This document shows positions 3,882 through 37,898 of a DNA stretch of 64,000 bases, one piece after another. A model generated the notes under the pieces. The model was not told the DNA's origin, made no database searches, and saw only the letters and a list, made by a program, of their open reading frames with translations. Each line of letters starts with the position of its first letter. Position 1 is the stretch's first letter. Origin of the DNA: a virus (lineage: Duplodnaviria > Heunggongvirae > Uroviricota > Caudoviricetes). The DNA lies in the IMG/VR virus record IMGVR_UViG_3300036860_000563, positions 1 to 64,000 of that record. One strand, 5' to 3'. The translations under genes and the position numbers were made by a program.

Positions 3882-3900
3882 TCAGCTCGTGCGAGTGGCA
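3874..3900 (-). other. perfect 9-bp inverted-repeat hairpin (GTGCCACTC / GAGTGGCAC) between dCMP deaminase and polA
   Basis: Seen directly. A second small hairpin, CACAGTG-CCA-CACTGTG, sits at 3833..3849. Confidence 0.3.
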
Positions 3901-4002
3901 CCGAGAACACTGTGGTGATTTGACAACTCTCACATCGACCACGATATCTCGTTAAGATTGACGACAACAGCGGCGACCATGGTGCGTTGCTTCTCGTCGC
4001 AG

Positions 4003-4476
4003 TCACGACACGCACGTAACCTCCAGCTCGCAGTTGGTGAGAAGTTCGTATGATCTCTCCGGGTTACGATGAGTGCCGCGCTCACGTCGACGTACGACGA
4101 CACGTCGTAGGCCCGAGTTGGCGATGACCTTAGCACACCCGAAGCAGACGTCACTCGTGACGTAGATCGTACCGCCCTCACGCGCCGATCGATCACAGAC
4201 TGACAACCCGTTGAGCTCAGCGTGTGATGATGGGCAGTCTGTGTAGTCCGAGTTGAGCTTCTCATCACGGTTAGTTAACGCTGCTCGCTGACACCACGCA
4301 CGACACGGTAGGTTACTGTGCGTGAAACCCCTGGGTGGGCCGTTGTAGCCCGTCGCGACGATGCGGTTACTCACGTTCACGATGACAGCACCCACCTGGT
4401 CGCGAACACAGAGACTACGCCGTGCGACGACGTCAGCGACGTTGAGCCACGTCTCGTCCCACGACGAGCGCGTCAC
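4003..4476 (-). CDS. dCMP deaminase (deoxycytidylate deaminase zinc-binding fold)
   Basis: SHAELNGL (HxE zinc ligand) and DVCFGCAKVI (CxxC zinc ligands). Extra LPCRAWC Cys pair. Confidence 0.75.
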   Translation of the reverse strand: MTRSSWDETWLNVADVVARRSLCVRDQVGAVIVNVSNRIVATGYNGPPRGFTHSNLPCRAWCQRAALTNRDEKLNSDYTDCPSSHAELNGLSVCDRSAREGGTIYVTSDVCFGCAKVIANSGLRRVVVRRRERGTHRNPERSYELLTNCELEVTCVS

Positions 4477-4733
4477 GATGAGTCTCCGTCATCACGCGGC
4501 GTAGTCTTTGCACGACGCGGGCACGACGGACACGAACACACGCCCTCGGCGCACAACACGTACCCGACTCCCTCCCGGAACAGGTCACTGATTGTAATGT
4601 CACGCCGGTTCGCGATGTCACGTAGCGTGGCGGCTAGGCCGAACGGAAGTCGCACCGAGTGCACCGACCCGAGCATCTTAGGATCTACGGGTGTAGGACT
4701 TGGATCGTGACCGGGTTCGGTGAGCTCAGTCAT
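4473..4733 (-). CDS. ribbon-helix-helix (CopG/Arc-like) small DNA-binding protein with Cys-rich tail
   Basis: VRLPFGLAATLRDIANRRDITISDLFREGVGYVL resembles an RHH strand plus two helices. C-terminal CSCPSCP. ATG 4733 lies 2 nt after the ThyA-like stop. ATGA overlap with the downstream gene. Confidence 0.4.
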   Translation of the reverse strand: MTELTEPGHDPSPTPVDPKMLGSVHSVRLPFGLAATLRDIANRRDITISDLFREGVGYVLCAEGVCSCPSCPRRAKTTPRDDGDSS

Positions 4734-4735
4734 GG

Positions 4736-5572
4736 CTATGATGAAAGTTCCGTGAGTGGTGTGAGCTGATCGCGGTACCAACACTCACTCATAGTCATCG
4801 TGGGGATGTCAGAGTAGGGTAACGTCCGGGCGCGCATCATGATCGAGTGAAAGTTGTCCTCCACGCTTCCGAGACCACGCGGCTGCCACTCGGGTGGTCC
4901 AACCGCCGGGCGTAGCCACTCGACTCTCTCCACGTCTGCCTCGTAAATGTGTGTTGACCACGTGGTGTGACGATACGGGCCGGGTGATACACCCAGCGCG
5001 CGCGCCGCCGTCTGCTGGAGCTGAGTGAACTGAAACCAGTCGTAGGGGGACCCGAGCCAGACGTCCTGTGAGCGCATGGTGGTGCGTAGGTGCAACTGAT
5101 CGTTCTTGAGCTCGAAGTGGAGCGCCACGGTGCACGGGTAGTCACGGTGCCCCGGTAGGTTGTCCAACCACGGGTCCCACAGTGTGATGACGGCCTGCCG
5201 TGTCGCTGGGTCAGCGCGTAGCTTGTGGAGTGCGGCGGGCACCTGCAACCGAACCCGGTCACCGTACGCCCCGTAGAACCGCTGGGTGTCGGGTTCGAGA
5301 AACCGCTGAAAGTTTGGCGACGCGGTGATGAGTAACCGTGGGTCGCTAAACCCGCCGATGAGCTGCACCGCCTCCGCCGCCGCCACACGTCGGTTGACGT
5401 CACGACAGACGCCCAGTGGGAGTGATCGGCTAACGTCGTACATGATGACGGTCAGCTCACCTGCGTCCAGCGTCGGCAGGCCTCGCGGCGCGCGTCGTTC
5501 CCCGTGCTTGATGACGTAGTTCACGACATCGGCGTAGCCGACCACACCGTTCTCGATCTCGATGGTACTCAC
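4736..5572 (-). CDS. ThyA-family enzyme (thymidylate synthase / dNMP (hydroxy)methylase homolog) with Asp at the pyrimidine-specificity position
   Basis: Aligns to E. coli ThyA. GERRAPRGLPTL ~ dRTGTGTL. DPATRQAVITLWDP ~ DPDSRRIIVSAWNV. YPCTVALHFEL ~ APCHAFFQFYV (catalytic Cys). MRSQDVWLGSPYDWFQF ~ QRSCDVFLGLPFNIASY, where the ThyA N177 / T4 dCMP hydroxymethylase D179 equivalent is Asp. The Cys-to-Arg spacing (20) is conserved. Confidence 0.7.
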   Translation of the reverse strand: MSTIEIENGVVGYADVVNYVIKHGERRAPRGLPTLDAGELTVIMYDVSRSLPLGVCRDVNRRVAAAEAVQLIGGFSDPRLLITASPNFQRFLEPDTQRFYGAYGDRVRLQVPAALHKLRADPATRQAVITLWDPWLDNLPGHRDYPCTVALHFELKNDQLHLRTTMRSQDVWLGSPYDWFQFTQLQQTAARALGVSPGPYRHTTWSTHIYEADVERVEWLRPAVGPPEWQPRGLGSVEDNFHSIMMRARTLPYSDIPTMTMSECWYRDQLTPLTELSS

Positions 5573-7837: not shown

Positions 7838-8109
7838 TCTCTGTGATCACTCTCTCGCCCAGCGGTTGGGTGAGACCTCTCGCCTCGCTACGCTGGATCA
7901 TACCAGGTACCTGCGCTAAAACCGTAGGTTACGTTGTGTGGACGACGACGCCCGGCGACCGCTTGTCAACTCGTCGGGAGTCGCCGCCGTCTCACCTTGT
8001 GGTACCGGTTCTTCACTCTTCCCCTCACAAGAAGCAAAGAACCACTCACTAGGTGTCCTCGCCGGGCTCGCCGCTGCACGACTCAAACAAGCTTAGACAC
8101 CTACGAGCG

Positions 8110-8183
8110 TAGCGGGAACCGGACTCGAACCGGTGACCTCTAGGTTATGAGCCTAGTGAGCTGCCGAGCTGCTCCACCCCGCG
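8110..8183 (-). tRNA. tRNA with CAT anticodon (Met or Ile2-type)
   Basis: Manual fold of the reverse strand: D-stem GAGC/GCTC, anticodon stem CTAGG/CCTAG with loop CTCATAA, variable loop AGGTC, T-arm ACCGG-TTCGAGT-CCGGT. Acceptor pairs 6/7 (position 1-72 is a C-U mismatch). Confidence 0.55.
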
Positions 8184-8246: not shown

Positions 8247-8288
8247 ACGAGAGTTATCCTACCAGGTCGGGGTGAAGGTAAGTTAGTT

Positions 8289-8678
8289 TCACACCGGCTG
8301 AGGGGATTGGTGGGACCGGTGTGAGTCGATGAACGTGTTGAGCGCGTTGATGAGCTCACCGAGCAGGTGATTTGTGACGTGCTGCTGGGCGACGAGCTCC
8401 GCCACGCCGTACATCACCGTGAGACGACCACCCCAGCGTTCGTTCGCGATCGCGAGCCGCACGTACGCGTCTCTGACGGCCGCGACGTCCGCCGCGACGT
8501 CCACCTCACGCTTCGTCGGTGGTGAAGCACGTCGGACCCGGTACGTGCGCCCGAGCTGGCGCTCCACGCGGTCACGGATCGGCCGTGACAGCCGTAGGAC
8601 GTCACCGCGGTTGGCCTCCGCGAACTTGATCGCCTCGAGCATGCGCTCCAGTGTGGAACCGTTGAGTGATACGCTCAC
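8289..8678 (-). CDS. hypothetical protein
   Basis: 129-aa ORF with high GC3. Confidence 0.4.
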   Translation of the reverse strand: MSVSLNGSTLERMLEAIKFAEANRGDVLRLSRPIRDRVERQLGRTYRVRRASPPTKREVDVAADVAAVRDAYVRLAIANERWGGRLTVMYGVAELVAQQHVTNHLLGELINALNTFIDSHRSHQSPQPV

Positions 8679-9879: not shown

Positions 9880-10731
9880 TCACTCATAAAAGTGATCCGG
9901 AAGACCAAACATGTCCGGGCTCTCAAGGATCATCGCGCCAATGTCAGTGTCCCGGTTGCTCTCGTTGCGCACGAACGGCTCGATCATCCGGCCACGGGGA
10001 TCGAAGTTGCTGAAGTACATGATGGACTTACGCTCGGGATCGTACTCCTCCGGCGAGCTGACTCGTAGGTTGCGTGCCTGGTGGAACAACGGCGGGATCT
10101 CCTCACCGGTCATCGCCGTCAGGATGCTGCCCGGCATGATGAACACCTCGTCCGAGGCCGGTGTCAACGATGTGATCACGTCGTTGTGAAAGATCTCCAA
10201 ACCCGGCGCGCTGGTCCAGATCACGGTGGCCACCACGCCGTCCTCGTGCCTGGTCTGCAGCAGCTCGCGCTCGGTCGGCGTGTGGAACGAGTTGAACTGA
10301 AGCACCGAGGTCGCCTCAAACGGCAACGCGGCAACACTCTCCACACCCTCGCCGTAGTACTCGCACAACTCGGCGACCAGGCGGGACATCAGCACGACGC
10401 AGACGTCGCGACGGTAGTCCTCCAGCGCGGTCAGCAACGGCCTGATCAGACCAAACTCTGGGATCGAGTAGGCCGACCTCACACCCCAGAAGAGAAAGGA
10501 GTCGTTGAGGTCCACGGCGTTGGGATCACCCGCGTGTGCGGCGCCCAGTGGCCGGTACCCGTTGTTCAACTTTGGCGATTGGTGCAGCGCTTGGCGCTCG
10601 GGATCGCGCTGGCTGAACTCCGTGGTCTGATCGTACAGCTCGGTGAGCAGGCGCGCCTGCCACGCGCCGAGCTGAACCCGGGCGAACCCCGCCACACGGA
10701 ACTGGGTCAACAGCGGCAACGCTACGCACAC
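9880..10731 (-). CDS. 2-oxoglutarate/Fe(II)-dependent oxygenase (isopenicillin-N-synthase-like fold)
   Basis: RHEDGVVATVIWTSAPGLEIF (HxD plus GLQV-like strand), FHQARN (distal His), RKSIMYFSNFD (Arg-x-Ser 2OG binding). Confidence 0.6.
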   Translation of the reverse strand: MCVALPLLTQFRVAGFARVQLGAWQARLLTELYDQTTEFSQRDPERQALHQSPKLNNGYRPLGAAHAGDPNAVDLNDSFLFWGVRSAYSIPEFGLIRPLLTALEDYRRDVCVVLMSRLVAELCEYYGEGVESVAALPFEATSVLQFNSFHTPTERELLQTRHEDGVVATVIWTSAPGLEIFHNDVITSLTPASDEVFIMPGSILTAMTGEEIPPLFHQARNLRVSSPEEYDPERKSIMYFSNFDPRGRMIEPFVRNESNRDTDIGAMILESPDMFGLPDHFYE

Positions 10732-11600: not shown

Positions 11601-12122
11601 CTACGTACGGTGTGAAGATGAGGGTTGAACGATCGCCGTCGCACCCTCGTTCGTGAGAGCACGATGTACACGGTTGGCCTCATCGAGGTCGGTGTGGGTG
11701 AGCACGTCGACGGGCGCGGACTCGACGAACTCCTTCGCATCGCGAATGCCGAGGGCGAGTAGTCGACGAATCGTCCGGATGATGGGCAGCTTGTTGGGGC
11801 CAACGTCGACGAGCCGAACCGTGAACTCGGTGGGCTCATCTTCCACGCTCAACTCGCCGACGGCATCACCAACCGCATCACCAGGTGGTGACACGAGACG
11901 TGCCGGCTCGGCTGTGACGTCGAACGTCTCCGCGAACCGACGATGAAACTCGGTCAGCTCGACGAGAGTGAGGCCCCCGAACGCTTCGAGTAGGTCAGAG
12001 ACACGACTCTCACCACTCTCACCACTCTCACCACTCTCACCACTCTCACCACTCTCACCACTCTCACCACTCTCACCACTCTCACCGCTCTGCTCCACGG
12101 GTCTTTGCCTCCTCACAACCAC
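11601..12122 (-). CDS. ribosomal protein bL12 (L7/L12)-like protein with an inserted (ESG)9 repeat
   Basis: C-terminal domain EFTVRLVDVGPNKLPIIRTIRRLLALGIRDAKEFVESAPVDVLTHTDLDEANRVHRALTNEGATAIV matches the L7/L12 CTD pattern (EFDV.L...G.NK..VIK.VR..TGLGLKEAK.LVE.AP). N-terminal-domain-like SDLLEAFGGLTLVELTEF. The ESG repeat is encoded by (CACCACTCT)9. Confidence 0.65.
   Translation of the reverse strand: MVVRRQRPVEQSGESGESGESGESGESGESGESGESGESRVSDLLEAFGGLTLVELTEFHRRFAETFDVTAEPARLVSPPGDAVGDAVGELSVEDEPTEFTVRLVDVGPNKLPIIRTIRRLLALGIRDAKEFVESAPVDVLTHTDLDEANRVHRALTNEGATAIVQPSSSHRT
12005..12089. repeat. (CACCACTCT)n 9-nt tandem repeat, about 9 units
   Basis: Seen directly. In frame as (ESG)n within the bL12-like gene. 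Confidence 0.9.
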
Positions 12123-13768
12123 GGCCAGTGTGCGTCACGACCGGCCTCTAAGAGTGGGATCAACGTGAACGCCGCGTCGGTGAGGCCACCGAAGGTGTGA
12201 CGGTTGTGACTACCCGCCGGCGCGTGACCGCGCTCGTAGCCCGCGAGGTTCCACGTGTAGAGTGGCGTCGTCGTGGGAACGACGGCGCTCACCTCGACGT
12301 GAGTGGCGTCCGCGGCGGCCTGCTCGTCGGTGATGATGATGACGCGATCGTGACCAGCGTGGTGTTGACGCAGCGCCGCGGCGGTCGCGGTGCCACCACC
12401 GAGGAAGAAGCCGTCACTCGCCCAGCGGGAGAGTGTCGTGAGTAACGACTCACCGTCCCGGAGTGCGAACGTCTTCGTGTGCGCGCCGTGTGCGTCGCCC
12501 CACACTCGGGCGGCCGACGAGAACGACACGAGGTCGGCGCTCTTCGCGCGACCGGCGAGCGCCGCGCCAAAGATCACCGCGACGTCCCAGCGCTTAAGTG
12601 TGCTGTTGTGCGAGAACTGCTCGTCCATCGAGGACGACGTGTCCACCAGGATGAGCGTCCTGCCGGTGAGCCGAGGAACGTTCGCGAGACAGTAGTTGAG
12701 CGCGCGCTCGAGCGGGTACGCCCAGCGGAGGCTGGGTGCCGCGCGGTGCGCCGCGAGAAGCCGGAGGGGAAGCTGCCGTGACCGCGCGACCTCGATCGGG
12801 TCGGCGAGCCTCGCTGCCACGGTCTGTGCGACCGCGTCTCGGACGCCCGCCTCGTCGAGGTTGCGCAGGTTACGTAGTAGTGCCATGTACCCCATCGAGG
12901 GCGCGAGTGCCTCCCACAGTAGGTTCTTCGGTAGCCGGTCGCCGGCTAGCGAGAGCACGTTCTCCCACGTCATACCCGCCGCGGCCAACGTCTCTACGTC
13001 GAGTAGCCCTGAGATACTGCTCTCTGCGACCAGCGAGCGCAGCTCAGCGTTGCGACGAACCGTCGTCAGCAGCTTGGGAACGGCGTTGTCGTGGCCGTGC
13101 CGCCGGTCCAGGGCGTACTTGAACAGCTCACCTTGCCACGGTGCGGTCGGACGTGGGTGAGTCAGCTCGACGACGTCCCCGAACCGAAACGCGTGTGATG
13201 TGGTGTCGTACTTGAGCAGCGCGCGCTCGGTGTAGAGTCGCCGAACGGCGTCGGTGACGCCACGCTTAACCGGCTGGGGTAGGTTCCGACCGTAGGACAC
13301 GACGTAGTACGCCAGCAGCTCACCCGGCTCGTCGGCGCGCCGCAACACCGCGTCGACGAGCGCCCGCGCCAGTCCCCTGTCGTCGGAGAGGCCCGGTACC
13401 TCGTAGGCCGGTACGGACCCGAGGTCAGGACGCTCGCGGCGCGCTCGGATGAACTCGACGGCCCCGACGAGCGGCGCGGAGCGAAGGTCGGCGTCGGCGC
13501 GGAGCCAGCGGAGAAGCTGGAACACCCACACCGGGTCGGTGACCGCGACGGCACGCACCAGCTCACGAAACCGTGTGTCTCGCCGGGACGCTGACTCGTA
13601 GAACGCATCCTCACCCACGAGGTTTGACACGGCGAGCAGGAACAGCTCACTCTTCTCGTCACGGGCGTAGCCGGGTGCGCCCTCGTGTGTGAGACCGCCG
13701 GGTGTAGCCTCGGTGGTGACCGGGCTGGTCGTCGCCGGACGGACGCCGAGAACGTTGAACTTAGTCAT
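12113..13768 (-). CDS. rsr: Ro60/Rsr ortholog (TROVE domain + vWA with MIDAS)
   Basis: Blocks matching human Ro60: ALLRNL (identical to Ro60 LTALLRNLG); RTLILVDTSSSMDEQ ~ RFLLAVDVSASMNQ (DxSxS MIDAS); GGGTA ~ GGTD; RVIIITDEQ ~ VFIVFTDNE; GGLTDAAFTLI ~ CGFDTGALDVI. Confidence 0.7.
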   Translation of the reverse strand: MTKFNVLGVRPATTSPVTTEATPGGLTHEGAPGYARDEKSELFLLAVSNLVGEDAFYESASRRDTRFRELVRAVAVTDPVWVFQLLRWLRADADLRSAPLVGAVEFIRARRERPDLGSVPAYEVPGLSDDRGLARALVDAVLRRADEPGELLAYYVVSYGRNLPQPVKRGVTDAVRRLYTERALLKYDTTSHAFRFGDVVELTHPRPTAPWQGELFKYALDRRHGHDNAVPKLLTTVRRNAELRSLVAESSISGLLDVETLAAAGMTWENVLSLAGDRLPKNLLWEALAPSMGYMALLRNLRNLDEAGVRDAVAQTVAARLADPIEVARSRQLPLRLLAAHRAAPSLRWAYPLERALNYCLANVPRLTGRTLILVDTSSSMDEQFSHNSTLKRWDVAVIFGAALAGRAKSADLVSFSSAARVWGDAHGAHTKTFALRDGESLLTTLSRWASDGFFLGGGTATAAALRQHHAGHDRVIIITDEQAAADATHVEVSAVVPTTTPLYTWNLAGYERGHAPAGSHNRHTFGGLTDAAFTLIPLLEAGRDAHWPWL

Positions 13769-14443
13769 AATAAGCAGCTCTACTTCCTGCCCGCGTAGAA
13801 GTCGTCACACGAAAACGTGCGACCCAGGGTGATCGGCGCACCGAGCGCGTGAGAACCCATACCTACGCTCTCACACCCGCACACTCGCTAGGTCGCACGT
13901 TCTCACATCGTGCTCCCCGAGGACGTGTCGTTCACGGCTTGTCACAAACCGGAGAAGTAACCGTGAACTTCGCACCGAGGAGATAAGACGAGGACAGTGA
14001 TGATCAACGTTGACCGTCATCGTCCCACTTCAGCTGATGCTCGTATCTCGTTGAGTTGACCGAGTTCAGGGTGACCAACGGTGTGATTTCAGCCAATTTG
14101 AAGTAACCGTCGGTCGGCGCACCGGTCAACCTATGACAACACTAACAGGATCTTGTCGAGCGTGCAAACTCGTACCCACCGAGTGGCCGTCTAACGACAC
14201 TTGATGATCACTTGGTGATCGTCCGGTGGTGTCACTGGGTGACACCCGCACGCCGGAGTGGTTGTAGATTCAAGGCAGTAGACGACGGTGGGCGCCCAGC
14301 CGCCAAGCCTAGGCGCCCACTCACACAACTAGATAAACAGGAGTAGCTGTGTTGGATCCTATCATCACCTACAGACGGGAGTTGCCACAGGTGCTTAAGC
14401 TAATAGTACCACAACCGCGCTACGTCCACGGTTGTGAGCTGCC
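13769..14443. promoter_or_regulatory. 670-bp divergent intergenic region between rsr and primase: several palindromes/hairpins, candidate location of a Y-RNA-like ncRNA
   Basis: No ORF with coding signature. Palindrome GGTGTCAC-TGG-GTGACACC at about 14227..14245. GC hairpin GGTGGGCGCC...GGCGCCCAC at about 14288..14320. Long-range 8-bp pairing GTTGACCG (14063) / CGGTCAAC (14133). Confidence 0.4.
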
Positions 14444-24732: not shown

Positions 24733-25860
24733 ATGGTGATGACGACACTCGCTGACGTTCTCGATCCGCACGCGCTTCGGCGCGCGCTGACGAGTGGACA
24801 CGTCCGCGCCCAAGCTCACCCCGAGCTACCCTACACGATCTTGAACTACACCGAGCGAGCGGCGTATGACGTCGCCTGGAATGACGTCACGTTGTCGTGT
24901 CGTGGTCTGATCTACGATCACAGCACGGACGTGGTGCTCGCGCGACCGTTTCGGAAGTTCTTCAACTACGGACAGCTCTTCAGCCACGGACAGTCTAGCG
25001 GACCGATCCTCGACCTCGACTCCGCGGCGGTGGTCACGGACAAGGCGGACGGTAGCCTGGGCATCTTATACCCAACACCGGACGACTGGGCGATCGCGAC
25101 CCGTGGTTCGTTCACGAGCGACCAGGCGGTGCACGCCACCGAGGTCCTGCGGTCACGGTACGCCACGTTCGAACCGCCGCCCGGGCTGACCGTCCTGGTG
25201 GAGATCGTGTACCCGGGCAACCGGATCGTGCTGAACTACGGCGACCTGGACGACCTGATCCTGCTCGGCGCGGTGGACATCGCCACAGGTCGCTCATTCG
25301 ATCCTGGCGTCTTGATGGGTTGGCCCGGACCGGTAACCGAGGTCTTCTCCTACGCCACCCTGGCACAAGCGCTGGTGGCTCCGCCACGACCGAACGCGGA
25401 GGGGCTCGTGGTGCACCTATCCCACAGTGATAACCGGGTGAAGTTTAAGCAGGAGGACTACGTCGCGCTACACCGCATCGTCACCGGGCTCAACGCTCGC
25501 ACGGTGTGGCGGCACGTCGTCAGTGGTGAGCCGCTCGGTGAACTAATCACTCCGCTGCCCGACGAGTTTCACCCGTGGGTGCGCGCTGTCACCGCCGAGC
25601 TCACCGCTCGCGTCGAGCGACAGCGCGCCGAGCTGGTGCGGGCGTACGACGACGTGCTGTGGGAGCTGTCGCAGCTGACGAAGACGGCAGAGGACTGGAC
25701 GCGTAAGGACTTCGCGCTCCACGTAGCGTCCCACCCTCACCGCTGGGCGATGTTTATGCTACTAGATCGGCGTGACATCTGCCCAACACTGTGGCAGCGC
25801 GCTCAACCCGAGGCGTCGTGGACGCCGTCCGGACGCACCTACTCGGAGGACACAGCGTGA
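24733..25860 (+). CDS. ATP-dependent RNA ligase
   Basis: Nucleotidyltransferase motif I VVTDKADGSLGIL (KxDG), motif IV EGLVVH, motif V RVKFKQ. GAGAAGG RBS. Confidence 0.65.
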   Translation: MVMTTLADVLDPHALRRALTSGHVRAQAHPELPYTILNYTERAAYDVAWNDVTLSCRGLIYDHSTDVVLARPFRKFFNYGQLFSHGQSSGPILDLDSAAVVTDKADGSLGILYPTPDDWAIATRGSFTSDQAVHATEVLRSRYATFEPPPGLTVLVEIVYPGNRIVLNYGDLDDLILLGAVDIATGRSFDPGVLMGWPGPVTEVFSYATLAQALVAPPRPNAEGLVVHLSHSDNRVKFKQEDYVALHRIVTGLNARTVWRHVVSGEPLGELITPLPDEFHPWVRAVTAELTARVERQRAELVRAYDDVLWELSQLTKTAEDWTRKDFALHVASHPHRWAMFMLLDRRDICPTLWQRAQPEASWTPSGRTYSEDTA

Positions 25861-25918
25861 ACATGTTCTTCTTCATCGGCTTTGTGGTGGGACTACCGGT
25901 CTTCTACGTGATCGCTCG

Positions 25919-27055
25919 ATGGATCATGAGACGATGATGGACCTGTCGGGTGCGAGTCTTCAGGTGCTGCTCACCGTACACACGAACCTGCGCAACGGCC
26001 TGAGTCGCGTCGCTGAGACGCTGGACGACGGCACGTTTCACGTCGTTGGAGCGCACGGTGAGGCGTCACCGGCCCAGTTTGGTCAGCTCATTCTCATCCT
26101 ACTCAGAGAGATCAACGCCGAGCTCTATCGGAGAACGGAAGCCCTCATGCCGACGCTGACGATCACCCGCGGCCTGCCCGCCTGCGGCAAGACGACCTGG
26201 GCTCGGGCCTGGGTGGCGCGTGACCCGACCCACCGGGCCAGGGTGAACCGGGACGACCTGCGCGCCATGGTCCACGACGGGGTGTGGCTCGGGCAGGACA
26301 CCGAGAAGCAGATCGTCGCCGGCCGCGACGCCACGATCCGGGCACTGCTACGGCGCGGGGTCGACGTGGTGTGCGACGACACCAACCTGCCGCAGCGAAC
26401 CGCCCGGGACCTGCGCCGCCTCGCCGTTGTGGCCGGTGCCGAGTTCCTGGTGGTTGACTTGAGCGACGTGCCGGTCGGCGAGTGCGTGCGCCGCGACGCC
26501 GTCCGTGACCGGCCGGTCGGCGAGTCGGTGATCCGGGACATGTGGAACCGGCACGTGCGTGGCCGGCCGCGTCCGCTGCCGCTCGCCGACGAGCCGCAGG
26601 ACGGGGGCGACCAGCCGGTGCCCTACGTTCCGCCGCCGGGCGCACCCAGCGCGGTGCTCGTCGACGTCGACGGCACAGTGGCGCTGATGGCCGCCCGGTC
26701 GCCGTACGACGAGACGCGCGTGCGCGAGGATCGTCCCAACCTGCCGGTGATCGCTGTGGTGAACGCACTCTACGACGCCGGCCACGCCGTGGTGTTCTGC
26801 TCGGGCCGCACCGAGGGCTGCCGCGTCGAGACCGAACGCTGGCTCTGTGAGCACGTGATGGCGCCGGTCACCGCTCTTCACATGCGCGCCGTTGGCGACA
26901 CTCGCAGAGACGCGATCGTGAAGCTGGAGCTGTTCGACCGCCACATCCGCGACGCGTACCGCGTGGTGTGCGTCCTCGACGACCGCGACCAGGTCGTAGA
27001 GATGTGGCGTGCGCTGGGCCTGACGGCGCTGCAGGTGGCACCCGGCGACTTCTAG
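25919..27055 (+). CDS. polynucleotide kinase-phosphatase (P-loop kinase + DxDxT phosphatase)
   Basis: TRGLPACGKTTWA (P-loop); VLVDVDGTVA (DxDGT); VCVLDDRDQVV (HAD motif IV). The catalytic core probably starts at ATG 26147. 25919..26146 is in the same frame with no stop, so the N-terminal limit is uncertain. Confidence 0.7.
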   Translation: MDHETMMDLSGASLQVLLTVHTNLRNGLSRVAETLDDGTFHVVGAHGEASPAQFGQLILILLREINAELYRRTEALMPTLTITRGLPACGKTTWARAWVARDPTHRARVNRDDLRAMVHDGVWLGQDTEKQIVAGRDATIRALLRRGVDVVCDDTNLPQRTARDLRRLAVVAGAEFLVVDLSDVPVGECVRRDAVRDRPVGESVIRDMWNRHVRGRPRPLPLADEPQDGGDQPVPYVPPPGAPSAVLVDVDGTVALMAARSPYDETRVREDRPNLPVIAVVNALYDAGHAVVFCSGRTEGCRVETERWLCEHVMAPVTALHMRAVGDTRRDAIVKLELFDRHIRDAYRVVCVLDDRDQVVEMWRALGLTALQVAPGDF

Positions 27056-27062
27056 GAGACGT

Positions 27063-27434
<372 letters not shown>

Positions 27435-27634
27435 GTGAAGAACGTGAGTGACGAGATGAAGGTGCTCGTGGGGTTGGTGCTGATCGTCGTAGCGGCCGTG
27501 AGCCTGTGGTGGGTGTTCACACACGTGGCGGCCGGACCGGCGCTTCCACCCACCCCGCGCGTGACGTCATCGCAGTGATGACGTCGATAACGTTAATGAT
27601 GATCTTGTTTCTCTACGAGCAATTCACCTCTTCT

Positions 27635-27643
27635 TGGTAGAAT
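27635..27643 (+). promoter_or_regulatory. extended -10-like promoter element TGGTAGAAT
   Basis: TGn + TAGAAT, about 60 nt upstream of the NADAR gene. Shares GGTAGAATC with the element at 33218. Followed by a (GAGAAGAG)4 repeat. Confidence 0.3.
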
Positions 27644-27700
27644 CGTAGCAGAGCGAGTGAAGAGGAGAAGAGGAGAAGAGGAGAAGAGGTGAGTGATGTG

Positions 27701-28162
27701 ATGATCATCGATCGGTTCACCGGTGAGTACCGGCTCCTCAGCAACTTTAGCCCACACTCGGTCACACTGAGTGATGACGGGATCGAGTACCCGACGCTGG
27801 AACACGCCTTCCAGGCCGTGAGAACGCACGACGCCGGTGAGCGTGCGTTGATCCGCGAGACGCTGTCTCCCACGCGGGCTAGAAAACTAGGGCAGTTCGT
27901 GGAGCTACGGCCTAGGTGGGACGAGACCCGGTACGCCGTCATGTTGGAGCTCGTGCGCCTGAAGTTCATCACCCACCCGGACGCGCTCACGGGGCTGCTC
28001 GCCACCGGGGACGCGACGCTCATCGCGGGTAACGACTGGCACGACAACGTCTGGGGTAACTGCACGTGCCTTCGGCGTGTGTGCGCCGCACCCGGGAGCA
28101 ACGTGCTCGGCCGGACGCTGATGAAGGTGCGTGGTGAACTCCGTGCCGCGACGAGAGTGTGA
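27701..28162 (+). CDS. NADAR-family (YbiA-like / DUF1768) ADP-ribose-processing enzyme
   Basis: FTGEYRLLSNFSP (F.G.Y..LSNF), YPTLEHAFQA, ...DNVWGNC fit the NADAR signature. Confidence 0.7.
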   Translation: MIIDRFTGEYRLLSNFSPHSVTLSDDGIEYPTLEHAFQAVRTHDAGERALIRETLSPTRARKLGQFVELRPRWDETRYAVMLELVRLKFITHPDALTGLLATGDATLIAGNDWHDNVWGNCTCLRRVCAAPGSNVLGRTLMKVRGELRAATRV

Positions 28163-28424
28163 CGGAAGTAGTGGCTCGCGTTGAGTGGAACGTGTTCGTG
28201 CAAGGTGTGAAGTTAGGGGGTCTTGACGTTGACGATTGAGCGTGTCATCCTGCTGGTTGTGTTCGGCGCGCTGGGCGTGGGGCTCGTGCTCTACGTCCTC
28301 AGCGTTGGACGTGGACGTGGGCGTCGTAGGTGACGTCACACACGCCACAGCTCATATCACCTCACCTGATATGATAAGAGTAAGAGACAGCTAAGAAAAC
28401 TCATCGACAGGAGATGATGATCGA

Positions 28425-28715
28425 GTGCTCAAGAACTTGGGTGCGTGGAAGCGCGTGTCGTTCGTACTCGTAGTTCTCGCACTGGCCGTCACAATCGGTG
28501 GCTGCGGTAAGATGCGTGAGAAGGTCAAGGACGCACCGATGAATGACCAGCTGGACAACACCGGTGTCGCGACGCGAGTCGTGATGCCGGACGGCTACTC
28601 GAACGTGGCCACTAAGTGCGATCACGGTAACCGGATCTACGTGGCGTTTCACGGAGACTCGCCCTACACCGCGATCGCGATCGTACCCGGTGACCCAACT
28701 TGTCCTAAGAACTAG
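28425..28715 (+). CDS. small secreted lipoprotein
   Basis: Signal peptide KRVSFVLVVLALAVTIGGC with lipobox-like IGG|C. AGGAG RBS, GTG start. Preceded by a TGATATGAT -10-like element at about 28367. Confidence 0.45.
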   Translation: MLKNLGAWKRVSFVLVVLALAVTIGGCGKMREKVKDAPMNDQLDNTGVATRVVMPDGYSNVATKCDHGNRIYVAFHGDSPYTAIAIVPGDPTCPKN

Positions 28716-28741
28716 GTGAGAGAAGGAGAGGCACGAGAGTC

Positions 28742-29746
28742 GTGGACGGAACGTTCATCGGCACGATCGTGTTCGGGGTGCTCACGCTCGTGGGAGTCGT
28801 CGTGTGGCTTGCCACGCGGGTGACCAACCCACGACCACACTCTGATCAGTATGACACACTCTCCGGTCACCGCCGAGCGGTAGCAGCGTGGGAGCTGCGC
28901 GGTACCGCGCGACGAGCCGCCCGCTGGACGGTCATCGCGCTCGGTGGGTGCACGGTGTTACTCTTCACGCTGTCGTGCTTCACGCGCGTCGGTACCAACC
29001 AGATCGGGATCATGAACTCGTTCGGGCGACCCGTGGACGCGCTGTCCAACGGCGTGCACCCGAAGTCGCCGTGGGAGACGAAGGTCGAGTTTGACGCGTC
29101 GCGGCAGTTCCTGCGCTTCCAGGAGCGCGGCAACGGCAAGGAGACGCACAGCGAGAAGGTGTTCCCGGCCTTCAAGGTTCGCATCGCGAACAACGCGGGC
29201 GCGGAGGTCTGGGGCGTCGTGACGTGGCAGATGCGCGCCGACACCCCGGAGGAGAAGTTGCAGGCGGTGCAGCTGTACCGGCAGTACCGCACGTTCGAGC
29301 GACTGAACGACAACTACGTCGCACAGTCGACGCAGGCCGTGCTGCTCGCGACGTTCGCGGACGTCAACCCGCTGGTGCCGGACAAGAACCCATCGTTCGC
29401 GGAGCTGTCCGTGACGACGGAGCGGCACCTGCGCGAGCTCGTCGGCGCGCAGCTGGACGTCATCTCGGTGCAGCTCACGTTCGTGGACTACGATGATAAG
29501 ACGGACGATGCGATTAAGTCTGTGCAGGCGCAGATCGCGAAGACCGCCGAGGAGACCCAGCGACAGAAGACCAACGAGGCGGCGGCTCGCGCCGCAGCCG
29601 CGCTGGGTAGCACCGCGCAGGGACCACCGCCCAGCGAGGCGGTGCTCATCAACAAGTGTCTGGACATCGCACAGGCACTGGGTAAGGAACCCGGCTACTG
29701 CTTCATCCGAGGTGCCACTCCGATCATCGGGCGCTCACCGCAGTAG
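28742..29746 (+). CDS. SPFH/band-7 (stomatin/prohibitin-like) membrane protein
   Basis: Two N-terminal TM segments, then a band-7-like core (IMNSFGRPVDAL...HPKSPWETKVEFD...FKVRIANNAGAEVWGVVTWQMR), then a coiled-coil/Ala-rich tail. Confidence 0.5.
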   Translation: MDGTFIGTIVFGVLTLVGVVVWLATRVTNPRPHSDQYDTLSGHRRAVAAWELRGTARRAARWTVIALGGCTVLLFTLSCFTRVGTNQIGIMNSFGRPVDALSNGVHPKSPWETKVEFDASRQFLRFQERGNGKETHSEKVFPAFKVRIANNAGAEVWGVVTWQMRADTPEEKLQAVQLYRQYRTFERLNDNYVAQSTQAVLLATFADVNPLVPDKNPSFAELSVTTERHLRELVGAQLDVISVQLTFVDYDDKTDDAIKSVQAQIAKTAEETQRQKTNEAAARAAAALGSTAQGPPPSEAVLINKCLDIAQALGKEPGYCFIRGATPIIGRSPQ

Positions 29747-29774
29747 GGTTCACTCGCGCTACGTTGACCGATGA

Positions 29775-30491
29775 GTGACGAGGAGAGTGACGCCCGTGAA
29801 CACGGTGCTGCTGAATGGGATCGTCGGGTCGACCGCGTACAACTTAGCGGACTCTGACTCGGACGTGGACAGACTCGGGATCTTCGCCGTTGACACGGTG
29901 GAGCTGCACGGGTTGAGGCGTCCGGTTGAGAGCATCGTTAGGACGCATCCGGATCGCACGCTTCACGAGGTGGGTAAGTGGTGTCGACTCGCACTTAACG
30001 GTAACCCCACCGTGATGGAGCTCGTGTGGTTACCGCGTGACCTGTACGAGGAGAGCACCGAGCTCGGCGAGGAACTCATCGCGTTACGTGGCGAGTTCTT
30101 GAGTGCGAGTCGCGTGCGAGACGCGTACCTGGGCTACGCCACCCAGCAGTTCTACAAGCTTCAGGCGCGCGGTGATGGGTCGTTCTCTGCCGACACGCGT
30201 AAGCGTATGGCGAAGCACGCACGACACCTACTTCGGCTGCTCGAGCAGGGCGTCGAGCTGCACCGGACCGGCACGTTGACGATCCGGCTCTCACCAGAAG
30301 TCGCCGCCGCGGTGCGCGAGTTCGGCGACCGGGTCGCGACCGGTGACGTGGAGGAAGCGCGTGTAAAGCTCTCACTGTTCGAGGAGGTGTTCCGCACGGT
30401 GTCGACGCCACTGCCCGCTGAGCCCAACGTCGAGCGCGTGGAGCGCTGGCTGCGTGAGGTGCGACGACAACACTACGCTTCTGAGAAGTAA
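29775..30491 (+). CDS. minimal pol-beta-superfamily nucleotidyltransferase
   Basis: LLNGIVGSTAYNLADSDSDVDRLGIF is the GS-x9-DxD NTase signature. Alternative GTG starts at 29787 and 29796. Confidence 0.55.
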   Translation: MTRRVTPVNTVLLNGIVGSTAYNLADSDSDVDRLGIFAVDTVELHGLRRPVESIVRTHPDRTLHEVGKWCRLALNGNPTVMELVWLPRDLYEESTELGEELIALRGEFLSASRVRDAYLGYATQQFYKLQARGDGSFSADTRKRMAKHARHLLRLLEQGVELHRTGTLTIRLSPEVAAAVREFGDRVATGDVEEARVKLSLFEEVFRTVSTPLPAEPNVERVERWLREVRRQHYASEK

Positions 30492-33231: not shown

Positions 33232-34740
33232 ATGATGGGGTTGGGTGAGAGCGCGTCACTCGAGCGCACGCTCGCGGACGCGCTCGACCCGCCCGAACTA
33301 CGCTGGCGACGCGACCCGGTGGCGTGGGCCATCGAGCGCGCGCGGGTGGAGTTGTGGTCCAAGCAGCGTGAGATTCTCGAGTCCGTCCGGGACAACGCCA
33401 ACACGGCGGTGCGCTCGGCTCACTCCTCGGGGAAGAGCTGGCTCGCGTCCCTACTCACGTGCTGGTGGGTGGACGTTCACCCGGCGGGTCAGGCGCGCGT
33501 CATCACGACGGCACCGACGTCGAAGCAGGTCGACGCCGTGCTCTGGTACGAGATCAACCGGATGCACGCGCGGCTTGGATTACGTGGTCGTACGAACATG
33601 TCGGAGTGGTTTCTCGGTGACCGGATGCTCGTCGCGCTGGGTCGTAAGCCGCCGGACCACGTGGAGGCCGCGTTTCAGGGTTTACACGCGCGGTTCTTGC
33701 TTGCGATCCTAGACGAGGCATATGGCATCCCAAAGCACCTGTGGGACGAGGCCTCGACGTTGGCCAGCAACGAACACGGACGGGTGCTCGCGATCGGTAA
33801 CCCGGACGGACCCGGTGAGTTTGAAGAGAACTGCAAGGCCGGCTCCGGCTGGAACGTCATTCACATTGGGTACGCGGACACACCTAACTTCACGGGTGAG
33901 CCGGTGTCACGTGAGCTCGGTGAGTTGCTCGTGTCGCGCCGTTGGGTGGACGAGCGCCGGCACAAGTGGGGCGCTCACTCCGCGCTCTTTCAATCGAAGG
34001 TGGAGGGTAACTTTCCCAGCGGTGGTGACCCGTACGCCGTCATGCAGCATGACTGGGTGACGCGGTGCCGGCACCTGGAGCTACCCAGTGGTGAGCCGGT
34101 CGAGGCGGGCATCGACGTCGCGGCCGGTGGTGATCGAACCGTCATCCGGGAGCGACGCGGTGCGCGCGCCGGTCGTGAGGAATCGTTCCAGGACAACGAC
34201 CCGATGCGCACGGTGGGTCGACTCGTCGAAAAGATCGTTGAGTGGGAGATCCAGCGTGTGAAGATCGACGTGACGGGTCTCGGCTGGGGCATCTACGGCC
34301 GAGTCCGTGAACTGTCGTCCCGACACAACCCAGCGGGAGAGACGACACACTCGGCGGAGGTGATCGACGTCAACTTCGGCGCCGGACCACCGCCCGGCTA
34401 CGCGAAGAAGTTCCTCAACATGCGCGCCTACCTGTGGTGGGAGGTCGGGCGTGAGCTGTCGCGCCTCGGTCTCTGGGACCTCACCGAGGTGGATGACGAC
34501 ACGGTTCACGAGCTCACAACGCCGCGCTATCAGATCCTCGACTCGTACGGAAAGATTAAGATTGAGTCGAAGGACCACGTCATCAAGCGGCTCGGTCTCT
34601 CACCGGACCGCGCGGAGGCGCTCATCCTGGCGTTCTACGACGCTCGGACGACGGCCCGGGTCATCGGGTGGGCACACATGGCGAGCGCCGACCTGCTCCG
34701 GGACACGTCGCCCAGCGACAACGTGGCGGCGTACGAGTGA
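33232..34740 (+). CDS. terminase large subunit
   Basis: Walker A AVRSAHSSGKSW. Walker B-like LLAILDEAYGIP. C-terminal nuclease-like region with acidic residues (GIDVAAGGDRTV, KIDVTGLGWG). Confidence 0.8.
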   Translation: MMGLGESASLERTLADALDPPELRWRRDPVAWAIERARVELWSKQREILESVRDNANTAVRSAHSSGKSWLASLLTCWWVDVHPAGQARVITTAPTSKQVDAVLWYEINRMHARLGLRGRTNMSEWFLGDRMLVALGRKPPDHVEAAFQGLHARFLLAILDEAYGIPKHLWDEASTLASNEHGRVLAIGNPDGPGEFEENCKAGSGWNVIHIGYADTPNFTGEPVSRELGELLVSRRWVDERRHKWGAHSALFQSKVEGNFPSGGDPYAVMQHDWVTRCRHLELPSGEPVEAGIDVAAGGDRTVIRERRGARAGREESFQDNDPMRTVGRLVEKIVEWEIQRVKIDVTGLGWGIYGRVRELSSRHNPAGETTHSAEVIDVNFGAGPPPGYAKKFLNMRAYLWWEVGRELSRLGLWDLTEVDDDTVHELTTPRYQILDSYGKIKIESKDHVIKRLGLSPDRAEALILAFYDARTTARVIGWAHMASADLLRDTSPSDNVAAYE

Positions 34741-34955: not shown

Positions 34956-35006
34956 GAAGATCTTAAGACTCGGCGTTGTAGGGCATCATTAATCCTGATA
35001 TGATTA

Positions 35007-35098
35007 ACTAGCTGGGGGTCGGAGAGGGAGGAATACCCGAAGGGCTTCGCGCCCTCCAGGCGGAATCAAGCTGCCTGGACCGCCTCAGCTCCAAAAAT
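35007..35098 (+). ncRNA. candidate structured small RNA (three internal hairpins closed by a terminal 8-bp helix; 3' end ...GCUCCA then AAAAUU)
   Basis: Preceded by a TGATATGAT -10-like element at about 34996..35004. No ORF. Terminal helix AGCTGGGG/CCTCAGCT is followed by CCA. Internal hairpins CGAAG-GG-CTTCG and CCAGGCG...TGCCTGG. Confidence 0.3.
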
Positions 35099-35166
35099 TA
35101 GTCATTTCAAACGAGAAGAGGGTATCGGCTTTCCGAGGATCACACACGTAGAGAAAGACGAAGGTC

Positions 35167-35433
35167 ATGGCGACGATTGAGGAATCTTCGTGCCCTGCGT
35201 GCGGCGCCGCCGACACGCTTCAGCTCGACCAGGCACTTGAGACTCAGCCGATCGGCTCGTTCTCGCTCGCCGGTGCTCAGATGAAGTTCTCCGCCCGGTC
35301 CCGGCCGCGGCTGACTTGCTCGGTGTGCACACTCGACCTGCTCGGTGAGTATGACCAGGACGGCCGGCACGTCACGTTCGACTCTCCGAAGGAGGTCACG
35401 GATGATCGTTCGCGTGGTGTACGTCCGCTGTGA
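35167..35433 (+). CDS. zinc-ribbon protein
   Basis: CPAC...CSVC. GAAGG RBS. Confidence 0.45.
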   Translation: MATIEESSCPACGAADTLQLDQALETQPIGSFSLAGAQMKFSARSRPRLTCSVCTLDLLGEYDQDGRHVTFDSPKEVTDDRSRGVRPL

Positions 35434-35614
35434 TGGGTGCGGGCAACCGTGCGGCAATGCTGATGATCTACGGGTCACGGCGGCCGAGGCCCGACAACTC
35501 GCGCGCCGACGGGGTTGGGTTCGACAGCCCCGTGACGTTACCTCGCAGCGCCCGGCAGGAGCCGACTGGTGTCCGGCGTGTGCGTTAATGGTTGATTCGG
35601 GGCTCTTGGTGTGA
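35417..35614 (+). CDS. zinc-ribbon protein
   Basis: CDGCGQPC...CPAC. AAGGAGG RBS. ATGA overlap. Confidence 0.45.
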   Translation: MYVRCDGCGQPCGNADDLRVTAAEARQLARRRGWVRQPRDVTSQRPAGADWCPACALMVDSGLLV

Positions 35615-35666
35615 TCAACGTGCCTAGCGCGGCCGTGGACGACGTCGGTTGCACGTTTGCATCACA

Positions 35667-35677
35667 TGTGATATAGT
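35667..35677 (+). promoter_or_regulatory. extended -10-like element TGTGATATAGT about 60 nt upstream of the tRNA cluster
   Basis: The 12-mer ATGTGATATAGT recurs at 37438..37449. TGATAT(A/G)(A/G)T-type elements also occur at about 24654, 28367, 34996 and 37890. Confidence 0.35.
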
Positions 35678-35737
35678 TCTACTTAAGAACGAGAACAGAG
35701 GGCGCCGGGTGGACGACGGGTGTCGGTCGGCGTTCGA

Positions 35738-35807
35738 GGGATGATAGCTTAACGGGAAAAGCCCGGGTCGCTCCCGGCGTACGCTGGTTCGAGGCCAGCT
35801 CATCCCA
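35738..35807 (+). tRNA. tRNA-like element with perfect acceptor, D- and T-arms but a non-canonical anticodon arm (CGC at the anticodon position)
   Basis: Manual fold: acceptor GGGATGA/TCATCCC + A73; D-stem GCTT/AAGC; T-arm GCTGG-TTCGAGG-CCAGC; variable loop CGTAC. Anticodon arm is either CCGGG-TCGCT-CCCGG (5-nt loop) or a 4-bp stem with loop GTCGCTC. Confidence 0.45.
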
Positions 35808-35951
35808 CGAGAGACACTCGTCCTAGGAGTGAGCGTCACTCGAGGATGTGAGTGGCGGAGGAAGTGGAGCCGGTTGGACCGTCCGGCGCGCGACACACCG
35901 GTACGATCGCTTGGTCAGCGAGGGACTACCGGTACCCGATCTCACATCCGA

Positions 35952-36023
35952 ACCTACGTAGCTCAACGGACAGAGCACCGGTCTACGAAGCCGGTGGTGG
36001 AGGTTCGACTCCTCTCGTAGGTA
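35952..36023 (+). tRNA. tRNA-Arg (anticodon ACG)
   Basis: Manual fold: acceptor ACCTACG/CGTAGGT; D-stem GCTC/GAGC; anticodon stem CCGGT/GCCGG with loop CTACGAA; T-arm GGAGG-TTCGACT-CCTCT; discriminator A. Confidence 0.7.
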
Positions 36024-36039
36024 CGAAGATCTTGATAGG

Positions 36040-37207: not shown

Positions 37208-37488
37208 AGGTCATTGTCTCGAGAGAAAAGGTGAGGGAAGAGTTTTTGATGCCCCGCTGGATGCTCAAGTTGTGCTTCACTGGTCGGCGTGTTAAAGGAG
37301 AGAGGATGGTCCGATGGACGCTAAGATCATTATAATGCTGGTGTGCTTTGGACTCGCCGCTCTGTTCATCAGTGTCGCGTTCTGGGGCAATGATGACGAC
37401 AGCTAACTCTTCGTTGGTGGTTGCACGACGTACAGTAATGTGATATAGTCGACGTAGAAGTGATCGAGTGACGAGGGAGTGATCAAGG

Positions 37489-37852: not shown

Positions 37853-37886
37853 GTCACAGCACCGTGTTGTTGCACGGTGTTGTGAC
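37853..37886 (+). terminator. 14-bp near-perfect hairpin GTCACAGCACCGTG-TTGTTG-CACGGTGTTGTGAC after gene 37489..37830
   Basis: Seen directly. Immediately followed by a TGATATAAT element. Confidence 0.4.
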
Positions 37887-37889
37887 TTA

Positions 37890-37898
37890 TGATATAAT
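37890..37898 (+). promoter_or_regulatory. extended -10 promoter element TGATATAAT
   Basis: TGnTATAAT consensus, upstream of gene 37936. Confidence 0.4.

Follow-up and report, generated by a model that had tools for sequence, protein, structure and literature searches.

The transfer RNA (tRNA) gene cluster of bacteriophage T4 encodes, in addition to its tRNAs, the stable non-tRNA RNAs 'species 1' and 'species 2', which are matured together with the tRNAs and whose function is unexplained. Here, we describe an RNA island at positions 34996-36023 of a 64,000-nucleotide (nt) stretch of the Caudoviricetes record IMGVR_UViG_3300036860_000563 (positions 1 to 64,000 of that record; hereafter, the window). 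The island contains one decoding tRNA, tRNA-Arg(ACG), and three non-decoding RNAs, which are referred to as E1, E2, and E3 (Table 1). As putative extra stable RNAs of a phage tRNA cluster, E1 and E2 can be likened to the T4 RNAs by description only, but E1 forms a distinct family and belongs to high-GC actinobacterial phages. The E1 family and the anticodon-less tRNA mimics represented by E2 are new variants of these long-known, unexplained extra stable RNAs of phage tRNA clusters. Our overall reading, to which we give slightly less than even probability, is that the island encodes stable RNAs expressed from phage promoters, including non-decoding tRNA mimics. The descriptive part of this explanation is held with high confidence.

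Phage tRNAs counter tRNA-targeting defences (PMC10264068, PMC11555353). Bacterial defences target tRNA anticodon loops, whole anticodon arms, and 3' tails (PMC10264068, PMC12445682, PMC12851939), and some of the nucleases hit the tails or arms of tRNAs and not the anticodon (PMC12851939, PMC12445682). The island shares its gene neighbourhood, and presumably its selective setting, with the arrays encoding counter-defence tRNAs. Nevertheless, those tRNAs decode and evade nucleases by base changes in the anticodon loop (PMC10264068, PMC11555353), whereas E1 and E2 appear to be non-decoding.

Another related system is YrlA (Rfam family RF02553), a tRNA-mimicking noncoding RNA of actinobacteria and phages that is a substrate of tRNA enzymes (PMC4201824). 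It is permuted (T arm, closed acceptor, D arm), its acceptor is closed by a loop, both of its ends lie in the Ro-binding stem, and it has a GNCGAA-type 5' module. Published YrlA genes lie within 4 kb of rsr and on the same strand (Chen et al. 2014, PMC4201824). Bacterial Y RNAs in general mimic tRNA, and Yrn1 of D. radiodurans has an 'anticodon' loop of 6 nt (PMC4201824). E2 is likewise a tRNA-mimicking noncoding RNA of a phage that encodes Rsr, but its acceptor ends are open, it has no GNCGAA-type module, and it is 21-23 kb away from rsr.

The E1 RNA family

An earlier note on this DNA, made from the sequence alone, had described a -10-like element followed by a segment free of open reading frames (ORFs), in which a terminal helix closes three hairpins. 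All the elements listed in that note were recovered in place, and the minimum-energy fold of E1 indeed comprises a terminal helix around three hairpins, P2-P4. The 7 bp of this helix, P1 (35011-35017 paired with 35083-35089), are accompanied by P1b (35020-35022 paired with 35080-35082) and followed by a conserved unpaired U. At the 3' end, the sequence is ...CCUCAGC-U-CCA, i.e., E1 carries a U-CCA tail, the encoded CCA of which is peculiar to the window copy.

Related loci, designated by L numbers, were obtained solely from scans with profiles and look-ups in metagenomes; they comprise 160 loci surrounding terminase relatives and further contigs from an exact protein look-up. E1-like sequences were detected by blastn in L083 and L027, both inside tRNA arrays, and a covariance model, first built from three copies, added copies from L093/L168 and L169, with scores of about 80 bits. 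With the model designated R1, the window copy scored 103 bits and the copies in the window, L083, L027/L162, L093/L168, and L169 spanned 80-104 bits, which corresponds to five distinct sequences in five phage contigs. No further copies were found with the covariance model over 1.9 Mb of related and rsr-centred loci.

Across the five sequences, both partners have changed in 11 of the 25 pairs, and 96% of the cells are paired, compared with at most 47% in slid controls. These double changes bear out the structured RNA candidate that the earlier note placed in the first segment. The covariation is mostly located in the terminal helix and in the 8-bp hairpin P4; the junction strands and loops (CGGAGAGGGAG, CCCGAAGG, GGAANCNAGCU, and ACCG) are invariant and purine-rich. 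E1 also carries an invariant G·U pair, which fixes the strand. The comparative evidence was graded as strong for E1 and good for E2, the single-sequence folding z-scores being modest (-1.8 for E1).

With regard to described RNAs, no Rfam 15 family was returned at E<=10 in a 1.2-kb search, and a search with 94 nt yielded solely an insignificant microRNA match (E=7.2) and no ribozyme or riboswitch family at E<=10. We note a resemblance between the GGAGAG...CCGAAGGAGCAA of E1 and the glycine riboswitch, and between its GGUCGGA and the GGUCCGA to which Ro binds in metazoan Y RNAs; the Rfam searches returned neither of the two families. E1 was also rejected as a tRNA, since it cannot be fitted to a cloverleaf, has no T arm, and lacks U33 in the loop of its middle hairpin. 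The sequence of this loop differs between copies, so the extent to which its stem closes varies. On the comparative evidence, E1 is a real and previously undescribed RNA family, with no described family matched.

Outside phages, a specific E1 pattern was searched in 185,579 bacterial and archaeal species, each represented by one genome, and gave no match. A loose 24-nt pattern gave 18 matches in bacterial genomes, which were chance matches in coding sequences and six Thermoleophilia loci; the covariance-model scores were insignificant. The Thermoleophilia loci were rejected as E1; in L265, the locus checked, the pattern falls on the antisense strand. These six loci (L251, L258, and L264-L267) have in common a conserved non-coding element of about 150 nt. 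In L265, for which alone ORFs were listed, the element (5050-5200) adjoins a retron-type reverse transcriptase (3600-4964, minus strand), and it is therefore probably a retron msr-msd RNA.

All copies of E1 are located at the head of, or within, a tRNA array. E1 heads the 36-tRNA array of L168, and its neighbours are tRNA-Gly and tRNA-Glu in L027, tRNA-Ala in L083, and tRNA-Glu in L093. Inside arrays, the distance between E1 and the next tRNA is 0-3 nt, so that E1 is packed as a tRNA gene would be. The window copy is preceded by the promoter-like element P1, a weaker variant of the phage promoter motif described below for E2. E1 starts after a 6-nt gap, i.e., 7 nt past the final base of the -10 element, and this spacing is identical in the window, L093, and L169, in which the 5' end of E1 is the predicted transcription start.

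A four-way junction with invariant, purine-rich junction strands and loops could also belong to a small catalytic or ligand-binding RNA, e.g., a self-cleaving ribozyme that cuts the array, and in L027 and L083 the 5' end of E1 coincides with the point at which the upstream tRNA ends. We nevertheless consider such a function very improbable, as the 94-nt search returned no known ribozyme or riboswitch, E1 is not placed as a cis-regulator of any single gene class, and in three cases its 5' end is no more than the predicted transcription start.

The arrangement of the locus also brings to mind a role of the RNAs as punctuation. Small protein genes directly follow E1, tRNAs, or tRNA-like elements in the window, L027/L162, and L169, and a scan of the stretch that separates the RNAs from the downstream ORFs found no terminator-like site. 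Cuts by RNase P and 3' endonucleases at E1, E2, and tRNA-Arg would then release and stabilise the co-transcribed mRNAs (those of the zinc-ribbon genes after E1 and of the ORFs from 36040 on, after tRNA-Arg), and the RNAs themselves would be functionless. This is unlikely in our view, as a mere site of cleavage would have no need of loops and junctions as strongly conserved as those of E1 (GGAGAGGGAG, CCCGAAGG, and GGAANCNAGCU), and the neighbours of E1 in large arrays are tRNAs and not mRNAs.

E2 and its short-looped relatives

The second promoter-like element anticipated in the earlier note, P2, precedes E2. Its motif, GTTGCAC-N16-18-TANNNT, has three matches in the window, compared with 0.13 expected by chance, and motifs of this type are also found 5' of RNA genes in L083, L093, L163, and L164. 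Besides P2, two copies, GTTGCACG-N14-TGATATA(G/A)T, are located downstream of the island (37420-37449 and 37869-37898).

E2 has much in common with canonical tRNAs (RF00005). All its stems are perfect (acceptor 7 bp, D 4 bp, anticodon 5 bp, and T 5 bp, i.e., 21 pairs), its folding z-score is -2.7, and it exhibits U8, a D arm with GG, a T arm with UUCGA, and the discriminator A73. It also lies beside tRNA-Arg, and no CCA is encoded. The Rfam tRNA model with permissive filters gave it 42.6 bits, above the gathering score of 29, whereas a default-filter gathering run over the window returned the Met and Arg tRNAs only and missed E2. E2 differs in the anticodon arm, CCGGG-UCGCU-CCCGG, which has 15 nt instead of 17 and a loop of 5 nt (UCGCU). 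Nucleotide 26 is missing, and the Rfam alignment accordingly deletes position 26 and two loop positions. E2 thus keeps the cloverleaf of a decoding tRNA but lacks the 7-nt loop with U33 and a purine at position 37, as well as nucleotide 26, a presentable anticodon, and a known charging identity set.

The pair G3·U70 is an established alanine identity determinant. As the third pair of the acceptor of E2 (GGGAUGA/UCAUCCC) is G3-C70, E2 would have no alanine identity, and as the anticodon arm closes on a 5-nt loop, it should be unable to read a codon. E2 is thus predicted neither to decode nor, on present knowledge, to be chargeable with alanine. ARAGORN, however, reports a 'tRNA-Ala(cgc)' here, places the anticodon at position 32, and draws E2 with a 4-bp anticodon stem and a 7-nt loop, GUCGCUC, in which U33 is present. 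That E2 is a working tRNA-Ala(CGC) of this kind is barely credible. The drawing breaks the D stem and introduces a C·C mismatch, G32-C38 would pair and shrink the loop to 5 nt, position 37 is a U and not a purine, and the alanine identity pair is gone. The view in the earlier note that this arm is aberrant stands after the ARAGORN and Rfam runs, and E2 is not a miscalled normal tRNA.

E2-like elements with a short loop (5-6 nt) were found in four sister lineages, L105, L093, L163, and L169. Aberrant tRNA-like elements were kept only if the anticodon arm was shorter than 17 nt; a lowered ARAGORN threshold gave mostly false positives, a first regular-expression scanner was too loose, and a second over-counted normal tRNAs with pairable positions 32/38. 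The element of L105 (8257-8326) has the same 5' acceptor strand as E2, GGGAUGA, and a 5-nt loop, AUAUG. That of L093 (10840-10912) has a 6-nt loop, and that of L169 (4306-4378), which lacks a D arm, lies directly 3' of E1. Among the relatives having this region, L163 is the closest, with a terminase that is 76% identical. Its order is as in the window, i.e., promoter, leader hairpin (with a corresponding sequence, AACAGAGGGGCC...), and tRNA-like element, and the anticodon arm, CCGGG-N5-CCCGG, is identical; the element comprises an acceptor and a T arm and lacks a D arm.

Every member of this set begins with GGG and ends with CC-A-CG, and the four relatives of E2 exhibit G3·U70 and A73. In the three members with D arms, the four helices are held through double changes in 8 of the 21 pairs, and the loop sequences differ. 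Selection thus appears, from these comparisons, to act on the tRNA shape rather than on the anticodon, which argues against a simple decay of E2.

The tRNA-like domain of transfer-messenger RNA (tmRNA) is comparable to the four relatives in its GGG start, UCC-A end, G3·U70, A73, and lack of a usable anticodon, and the Rfam tmRNA model weakly picks up the element of L093. In contrast, E2 has only 70 nt, a G3-C70 pair, no mRNA-like part, and no pseudoknots, and neither ARAGORN nor Rfam called a tmRNA in the window.

Unusual RNAs were also observed in L105 and L005. The L105 array, which has a second short-looped tRNA-like element (8391-8458) in addition to that at 8257-8326, contains a tRNA (7993-8067) with an 8-nt anticodon loop, for which ARAGORN gives the four-base anticodon gcct, as in a +1 frameshift suppressor. 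L005 (8255-8662) contains a phage-encoded tmRNA (tag peptide AHTPLRRVLAGVAGGAG), which is immediately followed by a D-armless tRNA-like element with a 6-nt loop.

Y RNAs and the phage Rsr protein

The earlier note also suggested that the aberrant tRNA-like RNA could be a Y-RNA-type module for the phage Rsr. The window does encode a TROVE/Rsr protein, bacterial Y RNAs are tRNA-like, the 'anticodon' loop of Yrn1 is short as well, and the GAUCUC found before the 3' strand of E3 is common to Y RNA units located upstream of rsr. We examined viral rsr loci, using the best 80 of 503. Upstream of rsr, these loci exhibit tandem Y RNA units with a regular 5' module, CCCGGUGCGNAGG...ACGGNUACUUC, and the 3' sequence ...UUGAUCUCGGG. 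A Ro-binding-module profile was made from 114 of the 5' modules, taken from upstream of rsr in the 80 loci. In the 64-kb window, this profile had exactly two significant matches, at 14127-14099 and 13979-13953 (minus strand), directly upstream of rsr, and it had no match in the island (34996-36023) even at E<=100.

Other observations point in the same direction. Rfam YrlA had no match in the island at E<=10, nor in the whole window at E<=1. Its sub-threshold matches in relatives, in L082 (41 bits) and L164 (37.6 bits), are both just upstream of rsr. E1 adjoins rsr in none of the best 80 of 503 viral rsr loci. The island is on the plus strand, 21-23 kb from the minus-strand rsr, unlike the published genes (same strand, at most 4 kb; PMC4201824), and the topology of E2 is that of a native tRNA with open acceptor ends and not that of the permuted YrlA. 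That E2, E1, or E3 binds the phage Rsr is thus highly improbable, and the suggestion of a Y-RNA-type module is not sustained. The Y RNA and decoding-tRNA readings of the island are essentially excluded.

The Y RNAs of the phage Rsr are more likely to be the elements at 14130-13800 of the window, which, judging from the profile matches, occupy the canonical position upstream of rsr (PMC4201824). This region (13800-14130, minus strand) comprises the two Ro-binding-type modules and a long hairpin (13912-13806). These candidates seem to have no tRNA-like domain, which would explain why Rfam YrlA misses them.

Two further RNAs of 84-102 nt, in L093 (10126-10209) and L095 (9287-9388), share a GGUGAG/CUCACC closing helix and a common 3' motif, GAAUGUGCGGCAGGGAUC. 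That of L093 sits inside a tRNA array, and its 5' part is loosely like a Ro-binding module.

Array setting and possible role of the island RNAs

The last tRNA-like gene of the island is the canonical tRNA-Arg(ACG) expected from the earlier note. It shares about 80% identity with its counterpart in cluster C mycobacteriophages, and it is one of three tRNAs called by ARAGORN in the window, together with Met (8109-8183) and the aberrant Ala(cgc) of E2. The description of this region as an island of noncoding RNAs and tRNAs is supported.

Between E2 and tRNA-Arg, a 106-nt segment, E3, is bracketed by complementary 9-mers (GGATGTGAG and CTCACATCC), which do close it in the fold, as had been noted. 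The folding z-score of the whole spacer (35809-35951) is -2.2, and that of 35846-35950, close to E3 itself, is -1.15. L083 has a terminal helix as in E3 (GAUGUGAG/CUCACAUC) at 10515-10613, with a CCCGAUC motif before the 3' strand. E3 was dropped as a defined family, since the two interiors are unalignable, and as a Y RNA, since it had no Ro-module match. More generally, the inter-tRNA spacers of related arrays fold better than shuffled controls (mean z = -2.5, n=28), with z = -2.5 for the spacer of the window in this comparison, and E3 is one of the many structured spacers typical of these arrays.

Relatives of the phage carry tRNA arrays of 9-36 tRNAs downstream of terminase (9 in L163, 14 in L082/L104, 17 in L083, and 36 in the L093/L168 contig), and the island is a reduced counterpart of these large arrays at the same position. 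One could therefore regard it as the decaying remnant of such an array, in which E2 is a pseudogene that has lost 2-3 nt of its anticodon arm and changed U70 to C, E3 is a leftover spacer, and function remains only in tRNA-Arg and possibly E1. The single decoding tRNA of the island, the presence of G3-C70 in E2 alone among its relatives, and the unconserved interior of E3 agree with such a relic. Nevertheless, E2 has kept all of its 21 stem pairs, which would not be expected had it decayed neutrally, and four other lineages have short-looped, helix-perfect relatives with compensatory changes. In addition, L163 keeps the arm and the arrangement of promoter and leader despite a 24% divergence of the terminase protein. 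We thus regard a mere relic as improbable.

Table 1 Features of the RNA island and other genes of the window
Feature	Position	Strand	Description and basis
Promoter-like element P1	34976-35004	+	TTGTAG (34976-34981), 17 nt, TATGAT (34999-35004); read from sequence
E1, ORF-free structured RNA, 82 nt	35011-35092	+	Four-way junction; fold and covariance model
Small Cys-rich zinc-ribbon-like ORF, 88 amino acids	35167-35433	+	CPAC...CSVC; ORF list
Small Cys-rich candidate ORF, 70 amino acids	35402-35614	+	CDGC...CPAC; overlaps the end of the preceding ORF
Promoter-like element P2	35648-35677	+	GTTGCAC-N17-TATAGT
Leader hairpin between P2 and E2	35700-35735	+	Fold
E2, predicted non-decoding tRNA mimic, 70 nt	35738-35808	+	ARAGORN, Rfam, fold, relatives
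Short hairpin opening the E2-tRNA-Arg spacer	35809-35841	+	Fold of 35809-35951
E3, structured spacer, 106 nt	35844-35949	+	Terminal helix GGAUGUGAG / CUCACAUCC
Canonical tRNA-Arg(ACG)	35952-36024	+	ARAGORN; Rfam 66.4 bits
TROVE/Rsr protein (rsr)	12113-13768	-	
Rnl1-type RNA ligase (Rnl1-like)	24733-25860		
Polynucleotide kinase-phosphatase (PNKP)	25772-27055		
RlaP	29775-30491		
Large terminase	33232-34740		Just 5' of the RNA island

The two small ORFs between E1 and P2, described as zinc-ribbon genes in the earlier note, exhibit paired CxxC motifs; the Pfam zinc-ribbon match is weak and limited to the first (E=0.004, under the curated cut-off). This ORF has a 56%-identical homologue in the related locus L029; the second has no Pfam match and no homologue among the related loci compared.

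The window is a phage-like, high-GC contig (about 63% GC). Its other genes include a family A DNA polymerase, a primase-polymerase, a thymidylate synthase, and NADAR. RNA repair and related genes are grouped at 24733-30491 (Rnl1-like ligase, PNKP, NADAR, an SPFH protein, and RlaP). Directly 3' of rsr, an ORF (11601-12122, minus strand) encodes the N- and C-terminal domains of ribosomal protein L7/L12 with an N-terminal collagen-like stretch, which is an unusual gene for a phage. Proteins of Micromonospora, Dactylosporangium, and Streptomyces share 58-63% identity with the Rsr protein, so the host is probably an actinomycete.

In a blastn search of the island against deposited phage genomes, tRNA-Arg was the sole match. 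The terminase protein has no deposited-phage relative above 42% identity, and a single-protein scan of IMG/VR for close relatives gave no match; its metagenomic relatives are many (60-79% identity). Three terminase relatives, P0002, P0005, and P0071, have 855-879 amino acids and LAGLIDADG/intein-type domains, and are therefore intein-containing terminases.

Based on these observations, the following mechanism can be proposed. The two phage promoters would drive the island RNAs, which would be expressed and processed like tRNAs. E1 would begin at the transcription start or be freed by the maturation of flanking tRNAs, its ends being made by the enzymes that mature these neighbours. As the requirements for folding into the tRNA L-shape are all kept, E2 should be recognised by RNase P, the 3'-trimming enzymes, and the CCA-adding enzyme. 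RNase P would take off its 54-nt leader, and CCA would be added after A73. E2, and perhaps E1, may then compete as tRNA-shaped decoys for tRNA-binding host or phage factors. This last step fits a phage encoding tRNA-repair enzymes (the Rnl1-like ligase and PNKP), RlaP, and Rsr, and it is the role that we favour, although at a probability well below even.

A more specific version holds that these phages encode a set of tRNA-shaped RNAs built not to decode, i.e., an anticodon-less tRNA-Ala-acceptor family (G3·U70 and A73) and the unrelated E1. Members with G3·U70 would be charged by alanyl-tRNA synthetase yet never read a codon. The set would be matured like tRNAs and serve as decoys for immune effectors that sense the body or the 3' end of tRNAs, or act as a charged-tRNA cofactor of a new kind. 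We judge this version unlikely.

Several observations weigh against our reading of the island as a source of stable, partly non-decoding RNAs. All the sequences are metagenomic, and the analysis ties neither E1 nor E2 to a specific defence system or binding partner. Both families are small, with five distinct sequences for E1 and 3-5 for E2. A generic sigma-70 consensus scan of the island region called no promoter, P1 included, and the interior of E3 cannot be aligned with the L083 spacer. In E2, C70 replaces U70, the sole base that would allow alanine charging, and this change may possibly reflect the decay of the window's own copy. Moreover, helix covariation is expected in any set of tRNA-derived genes, so that it is the recurrence of the short loop, together with the positional orthologue in L163, that carries the case for E2.

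The tRNA clusters of phages have come to be viewed as weapons in a conflict over host tRNAs, with a focus so far on decoding tRNAs. Beyond these, the arrays described here encode the conserved, covarying E1 and recurrent tRNA mimics with a loop that is too short, most of which keep the alanine identity pair. The analysis also places the likely Y RNAs of the phage beside rsr, in a form that is missed by the Rfam model. If expressed, E1 and the E2-type RNAs would be candidate RNA decoys or cofactors. If the reading of a tRNA-shaped, non-decoding set is true, E1 would represent a class of functional RNA that is new and specific to the tRNA arrays of phages.

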